This document shows positions 2,492-55,387 of a DNA stretch of 64,000 nt, piece after piece (within the stretch, counting starts at the first letter, position 1; each line of letters opens with the position of its first letter). A program made the position numbers and the translations under genes. The stretch is from IMG/VR virus record IMGVR_UViG_3300044796_000394. One strand, written 5' to 3'. The stretch is from a virus. Its lineage: Duplodnaviria; Heunggongvirae; Uroviricota; Caudoviricetes. The notes under the pieces are model-generated. The model saw only the letters and a list, made by a program, of their open reading frames with translations. It had not been told where the DNA came from and ran no database searches.

Positions 2492-5329
2492 ATGAATCTT
2501 GACCCTAACACTCGTGAACAAGAAGTTCTCAAATTGTGGAAGGGTCAAGATACGTTTCAGGCGATTCAATTTCGTCGGAAATCGGCTAAGCCTTTTGTGA
2601 TGTTTGAAGGCCCGCCAACCGCCAATGGCAAACCCGGCATCCATCACGTTCTCACCCGCACATTTAAAGATGCAATCGCACGCTTCCAAACCATGAAAGG
2701 CCGTTACGTTGAACGACGGGCCGGATGGGATGAACACGGATTGCCAGTAGAATTAGAAGTCCAAAAAGCCTACGGACTCCCCACCAAAGAATCCATTCTC
2801 GATTACGGTGTTGCTGAATTTAATAACAACTGCCAAGTCAGCACCCGCAACTTCATCGCCGATTGGGAAAAATTAACCCACCGAATGGGTTATTGGCTCG
2901 ATTTTGAAAACGCCTATAACACATCAGATCCTAGTTATATCAACAAAGTTTGGACAGTCTTAGATAATCTCATGGCTAATGATGAGATTTATCAAGACTA
3001 TAAAATCGTGCCTTGGGCTTGCGATTCCCAAACCGTCTTATCCAATTCAGAATTAGAACAAGGTTATAAAGAGGTTGAACACAATACGATGACGGTTAAA
3101 TTCCGCATCGATGATGACACCAATACCTATCTGATCGCATGGACAACTACCCCTTGGACATTGCCAGCTAATATGGCTTTAGCAGTCAATCCTTCGTTAA
3201 CATATTACGAAACCATTGACTCAGAGGGGTGCCATTGCATTAGCCTCAAAAAAACCGAACCCTCATTACCAATCAGTGGCCACAAACTTGTCGGCCTAAA
3301 ATATCGTCACCCATTTATCTCTGGTAAGGTCTGTCAAGTCTATGGCGACAACTTCGTTAGAGGCGATACAGGAACCGGAATTGTACATATCGCACCTGCT
3401 TTTGGCATTGATGATTACGCTCTTTGGAAAAAGAGTATGGCCCTTGAGCCAATCATCTGTCACGTAAATCCGGATGGTTCTTTCAACGCAGCAGCTCCAG
3501 ACTTGCTGCGAGGCATCAATTTGTTGGACAGAAATTTCAAAACTGTTAACTCTTTAATTCATGCCCACTTGACTTCGGCAGGAGCAAACTACGAAAATCA
3601 ATCCTTCAAGGATTCGGGATTTACACATCAATACCCGCACAATTGGCGAACGGGTAAGCCTCTTATCTATATGTTTAGACATAGTTGGTTCGTGAAAACA
3701 ACCGGCCTCAAACTTCGTCAAGTTAACAAAGAAGAAGTGACTTGGTATCCTAGTAATATCAAAGAAGGTAGATTTGGACAATGGCTTGATGGTGGCAAAG
3801 ATTGGGCAATTTCCCGTGAACGATTTTGGGGTACACCGTTGCCCTTTTATCGTGATGCTGACAATAACGTCTCTTTCCAAGTCCCTCAATATTATCACAA
3901 GCCGGGTTCTGATACGCCCATCGTCAAAGATAGAGTAATCTGGAAACGAACCTCAGAAGTTTTGGACTGCTGGTTCGATAGTGGCGCAATGCCGTTTGCC
4001 GCTTATGAGAAGTTCCAGCCAGCCGATGTAATTTGTGAGGGCATCGATCAAACCCGTGGGTGGTTCTATTCGTTAATGGTTATTGGTGTTGCTCTCACAG
4101 AACATACGCCATTCAAGGCAGCGATTTGCCTCGGCCATGTTCTGGATAAGAACGGCGTGAAAATGAGCAAGTCCAAAAAGAATGCTGTTGATCCTTGGGA
4201 AGTTTTTGAGCGAGAAGGCGCTGATGCCGTTCGTTGGTACATGCTCAAAACACCAATCGGACAATCTCTTTTGTGGAATGAAGCCGAAGTTAAAAAAGTC
4301 AATCAAACATTCTTCAATCGCTTGCTTAGCTCTCTTGACTTTTACGAGCAACAACAAAACCCCGACAAGCCTCATCGATCTAGTAATGGGTCAAAAGATG
4401 CTACGGATATTTGGATGATGGCACGCCTACACAGTGTTGTTAACAGCGTATCCCAATATTTGGAAGATTATGAATTTGCCAAAGCGATTGAAGCCATTGA
4501 GCTTTTTACCAACGATCTTTCTAATGTTTGGATTAGAACAAATCGATCACGATTCCTTGCTGATGGTGCCCATGTTCCTAACGGTATTTTGAAAAACTGC
4601 CTAAAAACACTAACATTGTTAATTGCACCGTTGGCGCCGATGTTGGCTGAACATGTCTGGTATCGTTTGTGTCCAGAAAACATTGTTTATGGAAGCATGG
4701 GTTCGGTACATGCTACCGATTGGCCTAAACCAGAAGATAATACGTGGGACGCATTCTCAAAAAATATTGTTATTCTTGAAGCCATGAAAGAAGCTCGTCA
4801 AGTTATCACTGAAGGCTTGAAACAGAGAGACAAGCGGAATATCCGTTTGAGGCAACCGATCAAAGCAGTGCGGGTGCCTCGTAACATCAATCCACAACTC
4901 ATTCAATTCGTCAAGACGGAGTTGAATGTTAAAGACATCATCGTTGATGCTAAGGGGGAATCCGTGGAAATGGATTTCAACCTTACGGATGAACTTGTAG
5001 CGGAAGGTATGGCAAGAGATTTGATGCGGGCTATTCAAGTTCGCCGCAAAGATTTAGGTTTGAAGCGTGGTGAACCAATTCGTATCGTATTGGAAGTCGA
5101 TAAAAAGACCAGATCCATGCTTGAACCACATATGAGTGAGTTGATGTTAAGTGTGACTTGTGGTGATCTGCGATACAAAGAAGTCGCAGATACAGCATCG
5201 CCGATTGTAATGGAAGTCACAAAAATGGAACCGGCTAACCCAGATGGCTATAAGGAATTCGGAAAAGCCACAACAAAACTGACTTCTGCTGAAATCGCCA
5301 AAGTGATATTGACAAATCGTGTCGGTTAA
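2492..5329 (+). CDS. ileS: isoleucyl-tRNA synthetase, type 2 (IleRS2-like)
   Basis: EGPPTANGKPGIHH (HIGH region), GWDEHGLPVE, WTTTPWTLPAN and GTGIVHIAPAFG editing motifs, ISRERFWGTPLP, EGIDQTRGWF, KMSKS; C-terminal EGMARDLMRAIQ typical of type 2. Confidence 0.95.
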   Translation: MNLDPNTREQEVLKLWKGQDTFQAIQFRRKSAKPFVMFEGPPTANGKPGIHHVLTRTFKDAIARFQTMKGRYVERRAGWDEHGLPVELEVQKAYGLPTKESILDYGVAEFNNNCQVSTRNFIADWEKLTHRMGYWLDFENAYNTSDPSYINKVWTVLDNLMANDEIYQDYKIVPWACDSQTVLSNSELEQGYKEVEHNTMTVKFRIDDDTNTYLIAWTTTPWTLPANMALAVNPSLTYYETIDSEGCHCISLKKTEPSLPISGHKLVGLKYRHPFISGKVCQVYGDNFVRGDTGTGIVHIAPAFGIDDYALWKKSMALEPIICHVNPDGSFNAAAPDLLRGINLLDRNFKTVNSLIHAHLTSAGANYENQSFKDSGFTHQYPHNWRTGKPLIYMFRHSWFVKTTGLKLRQVNKEEVTWYPSNIKEGRFGQWLDGGKDWAISRERFWGTPLPFYRDADNNVSFQVPQYYHKPGSDTPIVKDRVIWKRTSEVLDCWFDSGAMPFAAYEKFQPADVICEGIDQTRGWFYSLMVIGVALTEHTPFKAAICLGHVLDKNGVKMSKSKKNAVDPWEVFEREGADAVRWYMLKTPIGQSLLWNEAEVKKVNQTFFNRLLSSLDFYEQQQNPDKPHRSSNGSKDATDIWMMARLHSVVNSVSQYLEDYEFAKAIEAIELFTNDLSNVWIRTNRSRFLADGAHVPNGILKNCLKTLTLLIAPLAPMLAEHVWYRLCPENIVYGSMGSVHATDWPKPEDNTWDAFSKNIVILEAMKEARQVITEGLKQRDKRNIRLRQPIKAVRVPRNINPQLIQFVKTELNVKDIIVDAKGESVEMDFNLTDELVAEGMARDLMRAIQVRRKDLGLKRGEPIRIVLEVDKKTRSMLEPHMSELMLSVTCGDLRYKEVADTASPIVMEVTKMEPANPDGYKEFGKATTKLTSAEIAKVILTNRVG

Positions 5330-5367
5330 GTTAGACTATCTGACCGATACAAATAAAGGGCGATTTT

Positions 5368-6804
5368 ATGAAAAAGGCAGAATTAGTAGAAGCAGGCATT
5401 CCCGTGAATTGCCATGCTGCTGCCATTAAGGTCATTCAAGATGGCTTCCGGCACAAAATCTTCCCTTCCAACAAAGGGGCACGGGAAGCTTTAACGAGAG
5501 TGGCCGCTGCGCCTGAAATGCACCTCGGCGCAGACGACTTCTACCGAGAATTGGCAAGCACCATCATTGCCACCCGCAAACAGCACGTTGAAGACGAAGC
5601 TCTTTACGCCAAAAACAGCATTGGTACAAGCCAATCGTTTGCCTCTTGGGGTGCCGACATTGAACAAGGTGCCATTGATCAAATGCAAAATGCGGTATCC
5701 CTGCCAGTTTCAGTGGTCGGCGCCATGATGCCCGATGCCCACAGTGGGTACGGTTTGCCCGTAGGCGGTGTTCTGGCCACATACGACAGCATCGTTCCTT
5801 ATGCGGTAGGCGTCGATATTGGTTGCCGGATGCGTTTTACGTTCACCGATATCGATCCATCACTCCTCAAGGATTCTCACGACAAGAAGGCGACTCCGCT
5901 CTGTAAAGCCTTGCGTGAAGGAACGGTTTTTGGCGTCGGCGGTCAACACGAAATTAAGATGAACCATCCAGTCATGGACAAGGATTGGAACATCACGGCT
6001 GTCACAAAAGCCGCCAAAGATAAGGCATGGCGGCAGTTGGGAACCAGCGGTTCCGGCAATCACTTCGCCGAATGGGGCATTGTGACGTTAACTCAAAAAG
6101 AATTCGGTTTAGAGCCGGGGAAATACGTCGCTCTCATGACTCACAGCGGCTCCCGTGGTTCGGGTTCTGATGTTTGTAGTTACTATACCGACGTTGCCGC
6201 TTCCAAGCTGCCAAAGGCTTATGAGAAATTCGGCAAAATGAAATTGGCGTGGTTGCCAATGGCTTCCGAAGCTGGCCAAGAGTATTGGGCAGCTATGAAC
6301 CTTATGGGTGATTATGCCGCTGCCAATCACTACGTCATTCACGAATTGGTTCTCAAGAATATGGGAGCAACGGCCCTTAAAGTGATTGAGAACCACCACA
6401 ATTTCGCATGGAAAGAAGATTACAAGGGAACCGAAGTGTACGTTCACCGTAAAGGTGCTACACCTGCCGGAAAGGGCGTACTGGGTATTATCCCCGGTAG
6501 TATGGCCACTTCCGCATTCGTCGTACGAGGCAAGGGCAATCCTGAAAGCTTGATGTCGGCTTCTCACGGTGCCGGGCGGGCAATGAGCCGCACCAAAGCT
6601 AAGGAACAGTTTAACTGGAGCACATGGAAGAGCCAAATCCAAAATGCCGGTGTACGACTATTGAGCGGCGGGATTGATGAGGTTCCCGGTGCTTACAAAG
6701 ACATTCACAAAGTCATGGCTCAACAAACCGACTTGATTGATGTTGTGGCAGAATTCATGCCCAAAATCGTCCTCATGGGTCAAGATGGTCGGAGCGAAGA
6801 TTAA
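5368..6804 (+). CDS. rtcB: RtcB-family RNA 3'-phosphate/5'-OH ligase
   Basis: PDAH, GVDIGC, GSGNHF, HSGSRG, HHNF, HRKGA, SHGAGR motifs. Confidence 0.95.
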   Translation: MKKAELVEAGIPVNCHAAAIKVIQDGFRHKIFPSNKGAREALTRVAAAPEMHLGADDFYRELASTIIATRKQHVEDEALYAKNSIGTSQSFASWGADIEQGAIDQMQNAVSLPVSVVGAMMPDAHSGYGLPVGGVLATYDSIVPYAVGVDIGCRMRFTFTDIDPSLLKDSHDKKATPLCKALREGTVFGVGGQHEIKMNHPVMDKDWNITAVTKAAKDKAWRQLGTSGSGNHFAEWGIVTLTQKEFGLEPGKYVALMTHSGSRGSGSDVCSYYTDVAASKLPKAYEKFGKMKLAWLPMASEAGQEYWAAMNLMGDYAAANHYVIHELVLKNMGATALKVIENHHNFAWKEDYKGTEVYVHRKGATPAGKGVLGIIPGSMATSAFVVRGKGNPESLMSASHGAGRAMSRTKAKEQFNWSTWKSQIQNAGVRLLSGGIDEVPGAYKDIHKVMAQQTDLIDVVAEFMPKIVLMGQDGRSED

Positions 6805-12742: not shown

Positions 12743-12873
12743 GGTATCCGGTGTGAGCATGGGACTCACTCCTGTAGGTATTACTGGACTTGGGATAGAC
12801 CCAAGCTGCTCGAAAGGCGGAAGACCGGTGCAACTCCGGAAATGACAAAAGGTTCGATTCCTTTCGGATGCTA
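12743..12873 (+). ncRNA. tRNA-like structured RNA (acceptor stem, D-like arm, four internal hairpins, T arm)
   Basis: GGTATCCG/CGGATGCT terminal stem plus A; GTGAG/CTCAC hairpin; AAAGG-TTCGATT-CCTTT T arm; intergenic within the tRNA array. Confidence 0.75.
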
Positions 12874-13191: not shown

Positions 13192-13265
13192 GTCGGGGTA
13201 GCCCAACGGCAGGAGGCGACACACTCAAAATGTGTACAGTGTGGGTTCGAATCCCACCCTCGATA
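13192..13265 (+). tRNA. tRNA-Leu(CAA) with short variable region
   Basis: GTCGGGG/CCTCGAT acceptor, ACACA-CTCAAAA-TGTGT, 5-nt variable ACAGT, GTGGG-TTCGAAT-CCCAC, A73. Confidence 0.9.
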
Positions 13266-13711: not shown

Positions 13712-13787
13712 GGTCTCGTAACATAGTCTGGTCTAATGTGCCGATCTTATAAGTCGGATATCGAAAGTTCAAATCTTTCCGAGACTA
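13712..13787 (+). tRNA. tRNA-Ile(UAU)
   Basis: GGTCTCG/CGAGACT acceptor, ACAT/ATGT D stem, CCGAT-CTTATAA-GTCGG, GAAAG-TTCAAAT-CTTTC, A73. Confidence 0.9.
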
Positions 13788-13788
13788 C

Positions 13789-13860
13789 TGTCGTTTAGCT
13801 GAGTGGTAAAGCGTCTGTACGACATGCAGAAGATCATCGGTTCAATTCCGGTAACGACAA
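13789..13860 (+). tRNA. tRNA-Val(GAC), atypical A32/C33
   Basis: TGTCGTT/AACGACA acceptor, TCTGT-ACGACAT-GCAGA, ATCGG-TTCAATT-CCGGT, A73. Confidence 0.88.
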
Positions 13861-13864
13861 CTTT

Positions 13865-13936
13865 GGCTCGTTAGTATAACGGATAGTGCGGTTGTTTCCT
13901 AAACGACAAGCAGAGGTTCGACTCCTCTACGGGCTA
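13865..13936 (+). tRNA. tRNA-Arg(CCU)
   Basis: GGCTCGT/ACGGGCT acceptor, GTTGT-TTCCTAA-ACGAC, AGAGG-TTCGACT-CCTCT; D loop carries GGA (A20 Arg identity). Confidence 0.9.
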
Positions 13937-13941
13937 CTTAT

Positions 13942-14017
13942 GCCTTCGTAATGGCCCCGGTTTCTACCCGGAAGGTGCATAACTGGAATTATACAGGTTC
14001 GACTCCTGTCGAGGGTG
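13942..14017 (+). tRNA. rearranged tRNA-Arg(UCU)-like RNA lacking a canonical D arm
   Basis: GCCTTCG/CGAGGGT acceptor, G73, CCGG-TTTCTAC-CCGG anticodon arm only 8 nt after the acceptor strand, ACAGG-TTCGACT-CCTGT T arm. Confidence 0.7.
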
Positions 14018-39003: not shown

Positions 39004-39661
39004 TATCGTAGTCGTTATCAACAGCCCATTGTGCTAAATCATGAAGGGCTTTGATGTTTCTCTGAATTCTTTCCTTGTCCACACCGCCGAAATGTACATC
39101 GGCCTTCCCCGGCTTTTTATCAACCTTGGCAGGCTCAACAGCCTTATCAATCTGGAAATCATTAATGGATTGAATCTTCCACAACAATTCTCTTGATTGA
39201 AGTGACTGTACCCCTCGCATACCCATTAATTGCAACACCAAATCAGCCATGTCGTTGCTCATGTTAACTTCCGGTGCCCGATTCTGACTATCCGGAATTT
39301 CTACATCAATACGATAAACGACATCGGGATGGAACGTTCCGCTTTGTTCCTTGCGGAATTTCCCATGTTTAACACCCATTTCCCCAATGGCATAAACAGC
39401 ACCATTGACAATTTTAGCCCACTCTGTTTCAGGCACGCCAGTAGGGTACAGGTTCATAGTACCTTTTTTCAAATGAGTATTCAAACCATCAATGGTAAAA
39501 ATACCTTCGGGATTGGTAGCTTTTTGACTCAAAGGTGCGTGTTGGTGAAGCCAAGCACGCACCTTATAGCCAAGGTCGGCGATGTCCTTAACATCGCTTG
39601 CCTCATATCCCTCTGGTTCAAACGTTACGCTTTCCGTTAACCACTTTTTGAAATTATTCAC
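38987..39661 (-). CDS. putative internal head protein
   Basis: Leader (M)NNFKKWLTE; overlaps portal stop. Confidence 0.65.
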   Translation of the reverse strand: MNNFKKWLTESVTFEPEGYEASDVKDIADLGYKVRAWLHQHAPLSQKATNPEGIFTIDGLNTHLKKGTMNLYPTGVPETEWAKIVNGAVYAIGEMGVKHGKFRKEQSGTFHPDVVYRIDVEIPDSQNRAPEVNMSNDMADLVLQLMGMRGVQSLQSRELLWKIQSINDFQIDKAVEPAKVDKKPGKADVHFGGVDKERIQRNIKALHDLAQWAVDNDYDTIAMS

Positions 39662-42194
39662 CTTCTACCTCGCTGGCATCAATTTCTTCGTCGTCAATTC
39701 CTTGCGACAAATCGTAAATTTCCAAATCGTACATCTTCAACTCATCGTCAGTTGGATCAGGCAATTCTACTACTTCAGGCTTCTCTGGTTGACCGTACGT
39801 GTCTTGTGCTTCGGCTCCAGGCTGTTGATCGCCCCCCGCATCCATTTCGCCACCTGTAGGCGGTTGATCTGGAGGCGGTTGCTGCCCGCTCATATCATTT
39901 GGTACTGGCCCGCCTGCTTGTGATCCCAATTCATTGCCCGGTGCTTGCGGCATAGCCACACCCAACAATTGAGGATTTTGACTCATTACTTGCAGCTTCA
40001 GTTCTTGCAGCTTCTGAATCATTGAACGAGCGACTTTTTCCTTCGCCTTTTCCAACGGTTCGTGCATAACATCCGTCAACAAGTCCAAGTCAGAATAAAC
40101 CATCGTACCCTTCAAGGTGGAAAGACGGTTAACACGGGCATCCTTGATTTCGTTTTCTGAGATTTCACGGTAGTGAGATGGAGCAGTCATCTTGATCTGC
40201 AAATCATCAAACAAATCACTTGGATAGCCACGCAATTGTAAGTGTCGAATAGCAACCTGAACCAGTCCACTCGCAACGTTTCTTTGTAGCCTCTCAACCA
40301 ATCTCGCAAACTTAACATCAACACTGGATAACGTCACTTTGGTGATTGAAGGATCGTCTTGTGCCATGTAGTTTCTTGGGAAACACATTGAGATAAACAA
40401 CTTGTTTCTGAAGTACAAGGCATCGTCAATTTCGCCTAAGTTTTGGGCACCGGGCAATGTTTCAACCCGTGTATTAGAATTCGGACGCAATGGAATCCAG
40501 AAGTCTTCATCGGCTGTCGGTGGCGTATTTCTTTCATCAACTGGCCCTGCACCCGACTGACCACCCTTAGAAGTAAATACCTTTTTCTTACGGAATTGAT
40601 CTTTCAATCGTTCCATGAAAGCTTCAGTTTTGAACGATGATAATTGACCAACATCGATGTAAAAGACCCGTCTTTCCGGCGCACGTGAAAGACGATAGAT
40701 TAACATACTATCTTCCATCAACTTCAATTGGTGCGCTGGGCCACGTGCTGCTTCAATCAAACTCACTCCATAAGGGAAAAACGTCTTGCGATTTCCGCCA
40801 ATACTAAAGTGTACGATAGATTGAGGTTGGAATCTGATAGCCGTTGCCTGCATCAATTCCGCTTCTGTAGCCTTCGTTACGTCAACCTTAGCTAAACTCT
40901 GATAATCAGGCCCATCTTTGGCTTGTTGGAATTCAATAGTCTTGCCTTTGATCGTATCAATACGATAAATACTTTCAGGTGGAAGTACTTGTACTTTCAA
41001 AATACCTAACTTGGGTTCATCGGAATCAATGACGAGTTCAATGAAGTGATCGCCATAAAGGAACAAGTCCCGGCACCAGCTCCAAATATTTTCGTCAAGG
41101 TTAATCATCGTCGGATGAAAAAAGAGGAATTCCAATTCTTCTTTGATGTCCGGATTTTTGCAGATGATATCGAGCATGTGCCCGTTCTCACCGATCTGGC
41201 AATTATGAAATACGCCGATGTCAGTACAGAAATTTTCGTGCTGATCTACGGAAAGATCGTAAACGTCCTCTTCGGCACCTTCCCAAGTAGCCAATACGGT
41301 TACGTAATCGGGAATCTCGCCTAAATGCTGGCATTCACGATAGCAAAAACCTTCGTATCTCAATCTTTCGGAAAGGGTATCCCAATCCTTACCGAAGAAC
41401 TCAGCGACTTGTTTGGTTTTCAATCCACCGGCAATGGATCTAACAATCTTGTATAGATTTTCTTTTTGTGTTTCGCCGGTACGCCATTCTTCAATGAAAT
41501 CACGTTCCGTCATCCAGCCTTTGTTATGGGTGAAAATACGTGGGAATTGTTTGCGTTTGGCACAAGCAAAAGTTTTTTCTGGCCGTTTGCGGTAGAAAGG
41601 CATCATACGATCACCCTTCTTTAACTGCCCCGCTTCAATCCATTCACCATTTCTCAACAAAACCCTATGGTCAGCAGTACAGCGGAATTGCGCACCGTCT
41701 GAAACGGTTACAACAACAGTTTTAGACTTCTTGACAATGCGTGGATGATGTGCCCAACCGAGTGTGTAATCTTGCTTGCCAAAATCGTAACAATATACGA
41801 GGAACTTTTCCCCTGTCATCTTGCGGGCAGCGAGGTCTTTAATTTCAATAAAGCCGAATGGAGTAGCAACTTTGGTATGTCCAGCAACGCAGGCTTCGTC
41901 AGCGAAAATCGTAATAGCATTTTCAATTTCGGGTACTGTTCTTAATCTTTCGTATTCTTTATATCGGCTTTGACGGTTTGTTACGCTGGATAAATCGATG
42001 AAGTCATTGCTGTCACGAAGCCTTACAACACCCCTACTACCACCAAAATATTCACCACTTTGACGAATGTCTTGAATGGCGTCTGGAACGGTAACGCCCG
42101 CACCTTCAATATCGTGAGTTACTTCACGCCGACGGATGGGATCAAGCTCACCTTGAAACTGCCATACCTTGTACAAATCACTCCAAAACGGCAT
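39654..42194 (-). CDS. gp20: portal protein, T4 gp20-like, intein-containing
   Basis: PEIENAI, QLKLMEDSMLIYRLSRAPERRVFYIDVG, EDFWIP, TLPGAQNLGEIDD. Confidence 0.95.
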   Translation of the reverse strand: MPFWSDLYKVWQFQGELDPIRRREVTHDIEGAGVTVPDAIQDIRQSGEYFGGSRGVVRLRDSNDFIDLSSVTNRQSRYKEYERLRTVPEIENAITIFADEACVAGHTKVATPFGFIEIKDLAARKMTGEKFLVYCYDFGKQDYTLGWAHHPRIVKKSKTVVVTVSDGAQFRCTADHRVLLRNGEWIEAGQLKKGDRMMPFYRKRPEKTFACAKRKQFPRIFTHNKGWMTERDFIEEWRTGETQKENLYKIVRSIAGGLKTKQVAEFFGKDWDTLSERLRYEGFCYRECQHLGEIPDYVTVLATWEGAEEDVYDLSVDQHENFCTDIGVFHNCQIGENGHMLDIICKNPDIKEELEFLFFHPTMINLDENIWSWCRDLFLYGDHFIELVIDSDEPKLGILKVQVLPPESIYRIDTIKGKTIEFQQAKDGPDYQSLAKVDVTKATEAELMQATAIRFQPQSIVHFSIGGNRKTFFPYGVSLIEAARGPAHQLKLMEDSMLIYRLSRAPERRVFYIDVGQLSSFKTEAFMERLKDQFRKKKVFTSKGGQSGAGPVDERNTPPTADEDFWIPLRPNSNTRVETLPGAQNLGEIDDALYFRNKLFISMCFPRNYMAQDDPSITKVTLSSVDVKFARLVERLQRNVASGLVQVAIRHLQLRGYPSDLFDDLQIKMTAPSHYREISENEIKDARVNRLSTLKGTMVYSDLDLLTDVMHEPLEKAKEKVARSMIQKLQELKLQVMSQNPQLLGVAMPQAPGNELGSQAGGPVPNDMSGQQPPPDQPPTGGEMDAGGDQQPGAEAQDTYGQPEKPEVVELPDPTDDELKMYDLEIYDLSQGIDDEEIDASEVEGE
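41202..41891 (-). mobile_element. intein (230 aa) in portal protein
   Basis: ADEA|CVAGHTKV block A, CTADHRVL block B, VYDLSV...GVFHN|C terminal blocks. Confidence 0.92.
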
Positions 42195-55275: not shown

Positions 55276-55387
55276 GGAAAGTTGGCTGAGAGGTTTAAGG
55301 CTCTCGACTGAAAATCGAGCGATCCAACGGGGTGTGTCTGATAACTTGCCCCCAGTAGATTCGTGGGTTCGAATCCCGCACTTTCCG
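55276..55387 (+). tRNA. tRNA with Ser-type body, GAA (Phe) anticodon and 43-nt variable arm
   Basis: GGAAAGT/ACTTTCC acceptor, G73, D arm GCTGAGAGGTTTAAGGC, CTCGA-CTGAAAA-TCGAG, GTGGG-TTCGAAT-CCCGC. Confidence 0.85.

Follow-up and report, generated by a model that had tools for sequence, protein, structure and literature searches.

A phage tRNA-Arg(UCU) gene with a transposed internal block and its widespread, mostly unannotated family

Here, we describe a phage gene that is best explained, as far as sequence can tell, as a tRNA of rearranged strand order rather than as a decayed pseudogene. The gene lies in a 64,000-nucleotide stretch of DNA (the window) from a large T4-like phage encoding the major capsid protein Gp23, a portal protein and gp15 as well as IleRS, RtcB and NAD synthase. 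In canonical numbering, its strands follow each other in the order 1-9, 22-47, 10-21, 48-76, i.e. not in cloverleaf order, and comparison with its relatives supports that the block 10-21 has been moved precisely into the 47/48 junction, where the D stem would re-form. The family of transposed genes is widespread and mostly unannotated, and appears to be a new structural variant of tRNA. For the window gene, we consider it likely that the product is a tRNA-Arg(UCU) that takes another strand path to the normal L shape, is charged by the host ArgRS and reads AGA. To our knowledge, the cloverleaf strand order has been treated as universal for cytosolic and bacterial tRNAs, and the known exceptions either lose arms or scramble only the gene. 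The features of the window are as follows.

2492-6804 (+), phage isoleucyl-tRNA ligase gene and then RtcB, located upstream of the tRNA run at a distance of about 7 kb
13712..13936 (+), canonical tRNAs Ile(UAU), Val(GAC) and Arg(CCU), upstream in the same tight run, identified by ARAGORN and Rfam
13942..13948 (+), 5' strand of the acceptor stem (1-7), with its partner strand at 14010-14016
13949..13950 (+), U8 and A9, read from the sequence; both were demanded by the parser
13951..13955 (+), displaced 3' strand of the predicted D stem and position 26 (canonical 22-26), fused straight to A9 and assigned by covariation of 23:12 and 24:11
13956..13972 (+), anticodon arm (27-43) with UCU at 13963-13965, U33, A37 and a mismatched 27:43, read from the sequence
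13973..13976 (+), linker equivalent to canonical variable-loop positions 44-47, assigned by its variable-loop match together with base 13992
13977..13980 (+), displaced 5' strand of the predicted D stem (10-13), covarying with the equivalents of 13952-13953
13981..13991 (+), displaced D loop (14-21) with A14, A15, G18 (13985), G19, A20 (13987; the Arg determinant) and A21 (13991)
13992 (+), U48, predicted Levitt partner of A15 from the 15:48 pairing in the family
13993..14009 (+), T arm (49-65), assigned by sequence and fold
14010..14017 (+), 3' strand of the acceptor stem and discriminator G73 (14017); CCA is not encoded

Much of this layout had been recognized in a first-pass annotation of the window. 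The acceptor stem, U8A9, the T arm, G73 and the length of 76 nt can all be read directly in the sequence, as can the anticodon hairpin (4 bp, loop 13961-67) that begins only 8 nt past the acceptor strand, and the D-loop-like motif placed between the anticodon and T arms lies at 13981-88. Thus, the gene has the canonical 7-bp acceptor stem (13942-13948 with 14010-14016; two of the seven pairs are G-U), 5-bp T stem, T-loop consensus and discriminator, and a 7-nt anticodon loop with U33 and a purine at 37. By sequence and covariation, the D-stem pairs, A21, R15:Y48 and G18G19 are also present, in the displaced position, with 22:13 mostly unpaired across the family. The linker and base 13992 together spell the most frequent variable loop of canonical Arg tRNAs in the loci analysed (24/145), and because of this match the D block apparently sits inside the variable loop. 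In the same 145 tRNAs, UA occupies positions 8-9 in 113. The transposed gene is the last of four closely spaced tRNA genes (1, 4 and 5 nt apart), all of which lack an encoded CCA; it follows Arg(CCU) as had been described, with a spacing that is similar rather than the same.

Neither ARAGORN nor Rfam, the latter even at E up to 10, calls the window gene, in agreement with the earlier expectation that standard scanners would probably miss it. Together with the two G-U acceptor pairs and the 27:43 mismatch, the missing calls would suit a pseudogene from a recent local rearrangement or an assembly error, an explanation to which we give next to no weight. The gene is present without any difference or joint in contigs of two peat runs (one DNA and one RNA-library, from two studies; the DNA run may be the window's own source), which argues that it is not an assembly artefact. 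Moreover, hundreds of divergent homologues share the rearrangement with intact stems, and at the family level this refutes both a pseudogene and an assembly error. On a covariance model of the family, the window gene, which is part of the training set, scores 68.3 bits, versus at most 25.1 bits for the canonical tRNAs of the window. Its folding energy is unremarkable (z -0.78), as in the canonical neighbours, and single-sequence folding did not discriminate. The contigs from the RNA library cover a whole 20-kb stretch evenly and are, therefore, uninformative on expression and processing; a promoter scan found nothing above chance.

The family was assembled from seven pattern scans of viral and genome contigs and one phage record, together at least 841 loci that were parsed with the window (842). 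Many pattern matches in these scans are non-members and only parsed ones were counted; among the matches listed, parsed-member loci per scan numbered 16/120, 87/122, 9/120, 55/121, 51/120, 41/117 and 97/120. The patterns and the parser demanded pairing of the acceptor, anticodon and T stems as well as U8, A9, A14 and GG, so that these features are not independent evidence. Run on 4.24 Mb of loci that had been reversed or only complemented, the parser in a slightly relaxed form had 0 hits, which argues that the family exceeds chance. The structural parser returned at least 275 distinct candidates, of which at least 273 (at least 842 loci) have Arg or Ile-type anticodons; the other two have GUA, probably a false parse, and CCA. 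The 273 listed members comprise 218 of Arg type (UCU 136, ACG 51, UCG 16, CCU 13, GCG 1, CCG 1) and 55 of Ile type (UAU 39, GAU 14, CAU 2), numbers that mirror the search patterns, three of which fixed UCU, rather than natural frequencies. The CCA-anticodon candidate and the two with CAU (Ile2 or Met) are found at L449:286-366 (-), L506:1486-1565 (-) and L778:10066-10145 (+).

Members are 73-88 nt long, mostly 76-80 nt, with a linker of 3 to 12 nt (mode 4 nt; 118/273 listed members), and CCA is encoded in 147 of the 218 listed Arg members. Metagenomes scanned for the subtype to which the window gene belongs yielded 87 distinct sequences at 120 loci (5 unparsed), with CCA encoded in 69. Built from 92 of the first 99 members, the covariance model had 73 hits, distributed over 55 of the 57 array-rich loci; each hit is of Arg or Ile type and two look degenerate, and ARAGORN makes about 805 calls in these loci. 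ARAGORN calls overlap just 10 of the 273 listed members. A copy resembling that of Streptomyces phage Gilson is present in 30 GenBank phage records (26 Streptomyces phages, Rhodococcus phage NiceHouse, Microbacterium phage Big4 and two uncultured), and only those of Karp (tRNA-Arg) and Mildred21 (tRNA-OTHER) annotate it. Members also occur at no fewer than 50 loci of bacterial assemblies (at least 50), many within tRNA arrays. Single arrays with three or four transposed tRNAs were seen at L799, L668 and L731. A further group, subtype B, consists of 12 distinct sequences, all from a UCU pattern, with an 8/4 acceptor branch, no D hairpin and a helix of 4-6 bp and varied sequence at the same place; none of its 12 loci (L964, L966-L974, L976, L977) has a canonical Arg(UCU) call.

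The central evidence comes from the D stem. Among the 230 listed members with the standard 7-nt first segment, 23:12 is paired in all 230 (CG 162, UA 26, AU 24, GC 18) and 24:11 in 229, in four Watson-Crick types; across all 273 without register correction, the two are paired in 269 and 233 members. No pattern or parser behind these counts demanded either pair. Their corrected mutual information (1.60 for 23:12 and 1.34 for 24:11) ranks amid that of the acceptor, anticodon and T-stem pairs, and in 115 disjoint nearest pairs of sequences, double changes preserve pairing in 28/28 and 30/31 cases. In other words, the search for compensatory changes among homologues that the first-pass annotation had proposed found the rearrangement to be shared and the D-stem pairing to be kept. 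For the whole structure, covariation in a MAFFT alignment is 0.902, versus 0.227 after shuffling and at most 0.167 after sliding, a comparison that includes the three ordinary stems, for which the searches had partly selected. The earlier description of the gene as lacking a D arm, thus, holds for the D hairpin, which is absent, but not for the D stem, which remains, rebuilt from displaced strands. Likewise, of the continuous helix of about 10 bp proposed earlier, the middle (23:12 and 24:11) covaries, while the flanks are irregular: 22:13 is paired in only 74/273 listed members and mostly U-U (177/273), and 27:43 is unpaired in 85/230; 25:10 is paired in 180/273. Canonical Arg tRNAs, unlike the transposed family, have C13-G22 in 108/145. 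A register with A9:U13 and base 22 flipped out is indistinguishable because both bases are invariant. A small alternative hairpin, also suggested earlier, has all four pairs in just 11/273 listed members and is not borne out.

Tertiary positions follow the same pattern. An A precedes position 48, equivalent to A21, in 268/273 listed members and was never a search criterion; U48 is present in 81/81 listed members from the two scans that left position 48 free, and of the 273, 271 have A:U at 15:48 and the other 2 have G:C. Position 37, at which the parser accepted either A or G, is A in 273/273, and members with six different Arg anticodons retain U33, A37 and the 7-nt loop. In Ile members, U12-A23 and A38 are often missing. 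These data bear on the possibility that the gene encodes a D-armless tRNA similar to mitochondrial tRNA-Ser, in which a large variable loop merely resembles a D loop and no D stem is rebuilt. The missing D hairpin, the motif being unpaired in the single-sequence fold and the variable linker (3 to 12 nt) would fit this possibility. Nevertheless, we consider it highly improbable, as it leaves unaccounted for the covariation of 23:12 and 24:11, the conserved A21 and U48, the two G15:C48 double changes and a position 20 that tracks isotype.

This tracking is pronounced: A20 is present in 218/218 Arg members and U20 in 53/55 Ile-type listed members, with A73 in 55/55 of the latter. In a scan that left position 20 and the anticodon free, A20 was found in 31/31 Arg members, and U20 and A73 in 17/19 and 19/19 Ile members. 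Bacterial tRNA-Arg determinants are A20, C35, U/G36 and A/G/U73, and the A20, U20 and A73 marks agree with the bacterial determinants listed, in the part of that source available to us (PMC9976931). The window copy has A20, C35, U36 and G73. In a tree built on 78 columns, identity columns included, 90 members required 3 label changes; a single Ile clade was not rejected (p-AU 0.97) and the constrained tree scored higher, so that repeated switching between Arg and Ile is not demonstrated. A search of viral contigs with the window IleRS found no relative.

In tRNA arrays, the transposed gene replaces the canonical isoacceptor. The comparison covered 64 clusters of loci, each holding 10 or more canonical tRNAs (loci of at most 20 kb; related phages among them are not independent). 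Canonical UCU is present in 2/38 clusters with transposed UCU versus 11/26 without (p 4e-4), both UCU forms thus occurring together in 2 of 38 arrays, and canonical ACG in 0/21 clusters with transposed ACG versus 15/43 without (p 1e-3). For UCG, CCU, GAU and UAU, the direction is the same and individually non-significant at the 10-tRNA threshold, while six unrelated anticodons show no depletion in the 64 clusters. The same arrays retain canonical Arg isoacceptors. The cultured Streptomyces phage Gilson (complete genome) follows this theme: it has an unannotated transposed copy with anticodon UCU (NC_048742.1, 71932-72005) and 35 ARAGORN-called tRNAs that include Arg GCG, UCG and CCU, with canonical UCU absent. 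In the window, AGA accounts for 197 of 778 Arg codons (25%) in 50 ORFs. Together with the homologues and compensatory changes, this slot replacement agrees with the first-pass proposal that the gene is not a pseudogene but reaches the tRNA core by another route.

A quite improbable alternative is that the RNA folds and is maybe charged and yet does not decode; instead, it would decoy tRNA nucleases or synthetases directed against phages, or donate its aminoacyl group off the ribosome. tRNA-like RNAs outside translation exist in phages and mobile DNA, i.e. Y RNAs and some allo-tRNAs, according to the portions of PMC4201824 and PMC5389517 at hand; IleRS and RtcB are also encoded in the window; and the gene can be redundant, with a canonical Arg(UCU) confirmed elsewhere in 2/5 bacterial assemblies tested, which are incomplete. 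Six Arg and two or three Ile anticodons in a canonical 7-nt loop with U33 and A37 speak against such a role, and codon-specific replacement of the canonical isoacceptor suits decoding better than a decoy.

Circularly permuted tRNA genes also depart from cloverleaf order, and in their case processing restores a normal tRNA. By analogy, the transposed gene could be scrambled only as DNA, with the RNA cut and re-ligated to a cloverleaf, e.g. by RtcB. The identical covariation would be expected, RtcB is encoded in the window and an RNA ligase and a polynucleotide kinase in Gilson, and precedents are known in algae and archaea (PMC4033280, in the part accessible). This explanation is remote, however: three exact cuts and joins would be required in a sequence with neither spacer nor splice motif, the lengths of linker and loop differ among members, and a canonical product would not arise from subtype B, with its longer helix and 8/4 branch. 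The RNA-library contigs have no joint, a weak argument as DNA may be present. The transposed order is most likely also that of the mature RNA.

How might a tRNA with this order fold? In canonical tRNA, A9 lies in the major groove of the D stem beside 12-23, 10-25 and 13-22 are flanked by 45-47, and A21 stacks by 48. Because of these positions, the new joins 9-22, 47-10 and 21-48 would connect bases that are neighbours in the canonical core. In our model, the D and anticodon stems would merge into one irregular hairpin and the D loop would become the strand entering the T stem, with G18/G19 still docking on the T loop and A20 facing ArgRS. The transcript would mature through host RNase P, 3' trimming and CCA addition, be arginylated by the host ArgRS and then decode AGA.

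The transposed tRNAs share with canonical bacterial and phage tRNA-Arg and tRNA-Ile (RF00005) the 7/5 branch, the anticodon and T arms, U8, A14, G18G19, A21, R15:Y48, the identity marks A20 and N73 and a location in tRNA arrays. They differ from RF00005 in that block 10-21 follows 47, the D hairpin is missing and 13:22 is mostly U-U; the Gilson copy scores 28 bits, below the Rfam cut-off of 29, and the window copy gives no match. D-armless mitochondrial tRNA-Ser, as described in the accessible parts of PMC7609411 and PMC4033280, similarly have no D hairpin where the acceptor strand leads into the anticodon arm. By contrast, the D elements are relocated rather than lost in the full-length transposed tRNAs, which occur in phages and bacterial arrays; the window gene, with 76 nt and with D elements kept and covarying, is not of this mitochondrial type. 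Algae and archaea have circularly permuted and split tRNA genes (PMC4033280, same part), which share the departure from cloverleaf gene order; in permuted genes, the 3' half precedes the 5' half, whereas in the transposed family both acceptor strands are in their normal order and an internal block has moved, so that this class was rejected too. Allo-tRNAs and 8/4 tRNAs (Mukai et al., PMC5389517, in the portion available) are likewise non-canonical, missed by scanners and found in phages and soil bacteria, and subtype B shares their 8/4 branch. They have, however, a D hairpin, a long V arm and Ser/Ala identity, while the window gene has a 7/5 rather than an 8/4 or 9/3 branch, Arg identity and no D hairpin; subtype B, where the D hairpin is also absent, does not belong to them either. 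Finally, bacterial Y RNAs (YrlA; PMC4201824, as far as accessible) have a tRNA-like D/T elbow in a non-standard context, phages included, and the Gilson copy lies about 1.5 kb from a gene for a 538-aa 'RNA-binding protein'. Unlike Y RNAs, the window gene has a canonical anticodon loop and an open acceptor end; there was no Rfam match at E up to 10, a scan of 33 window proteins (small ORFs left out) gave no TROVE hit, and this class was rejected. The main texts of the open-access literature searched, in part as excerpts, contained no description of the transposed family; its novelty could be affected by the irregular tRNAs of the PMC5389517 supplement. In the accessible parts of PMC10865867 and PMC8421152, there is nothing on the transposed structure.

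A large natural family with another connectivity would show that translation reads the shape of a tRNA and a few bases and not the path of the strand, and cultured phages and a 76-nt transcript allow this question to be tested directly. Another implication is that phage tRNA sets are undercounted, with seemingly absent Arg(UCU), Arg(ACG) and Ile genes present and hidden from scanners, and the fold may serve as a scaffold on which engineered or nuclease-resistant tRNAs are built. The rearrangement may plausibly have originated by internal duplication and deletion. That it was kept as a neutral alternative fold and spread by anticodon change has close to an even chance; that it was kept through resistance to nucleases reading the variable-loop/core region is possible, at somewhat below even. 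Nuclease evasion is plausible because defences that cleave the variable loop exist and T5 tRNA-Tyr resists one of them via its variable loop (PMC13096335, from the part available), and the neutral alternative fits as well because the same arrays keep canonical Arg isoacceptors. More speculatively, and in our view doubtfully, the family could represent a second natural tRNA wiring that translates, is accepted by unmodified host synthetases, EF-Tu and ribosomes in several bacterial phyla, and is kept because its altered core resists anti-phage nucleases whose target in Arg and Ile tRNAs is the canonical variable-loop/D-stem region.

The window contains other unusual elements. At 12743-12873 (+), a second tRNA-like RNA combines an 8-bp acceptor-like stem and a T arm with a D-like hairpin and four more hairpins; it has no ARAGORN or Rfam call, a fold z of -1.94 and no blastn match in the fetched loci. 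A 112-nt element at 55276-55387 (+) with a long insertion after the anticodon region matches the Rfam tRNA model (50 bits) and is missed by ARAGORN, and the variable loop of a tRNA-Leu(CAA) at 13192-13265 (+) is short; several viral loci have similar copies of this tRNA. The portal protein gene at 39654-42194 (-) contains an intein domain. In other loci than the window, a recurring non-tRNA element with two T-loop-like hairpins and a D-loop-like GG motif between them, often directly after a tRNA, was observed at L010, L012, L013, L015, L037, L066, L067, L084, L090, L102, L104, L117 and L119, and may be part of a known large RNA.
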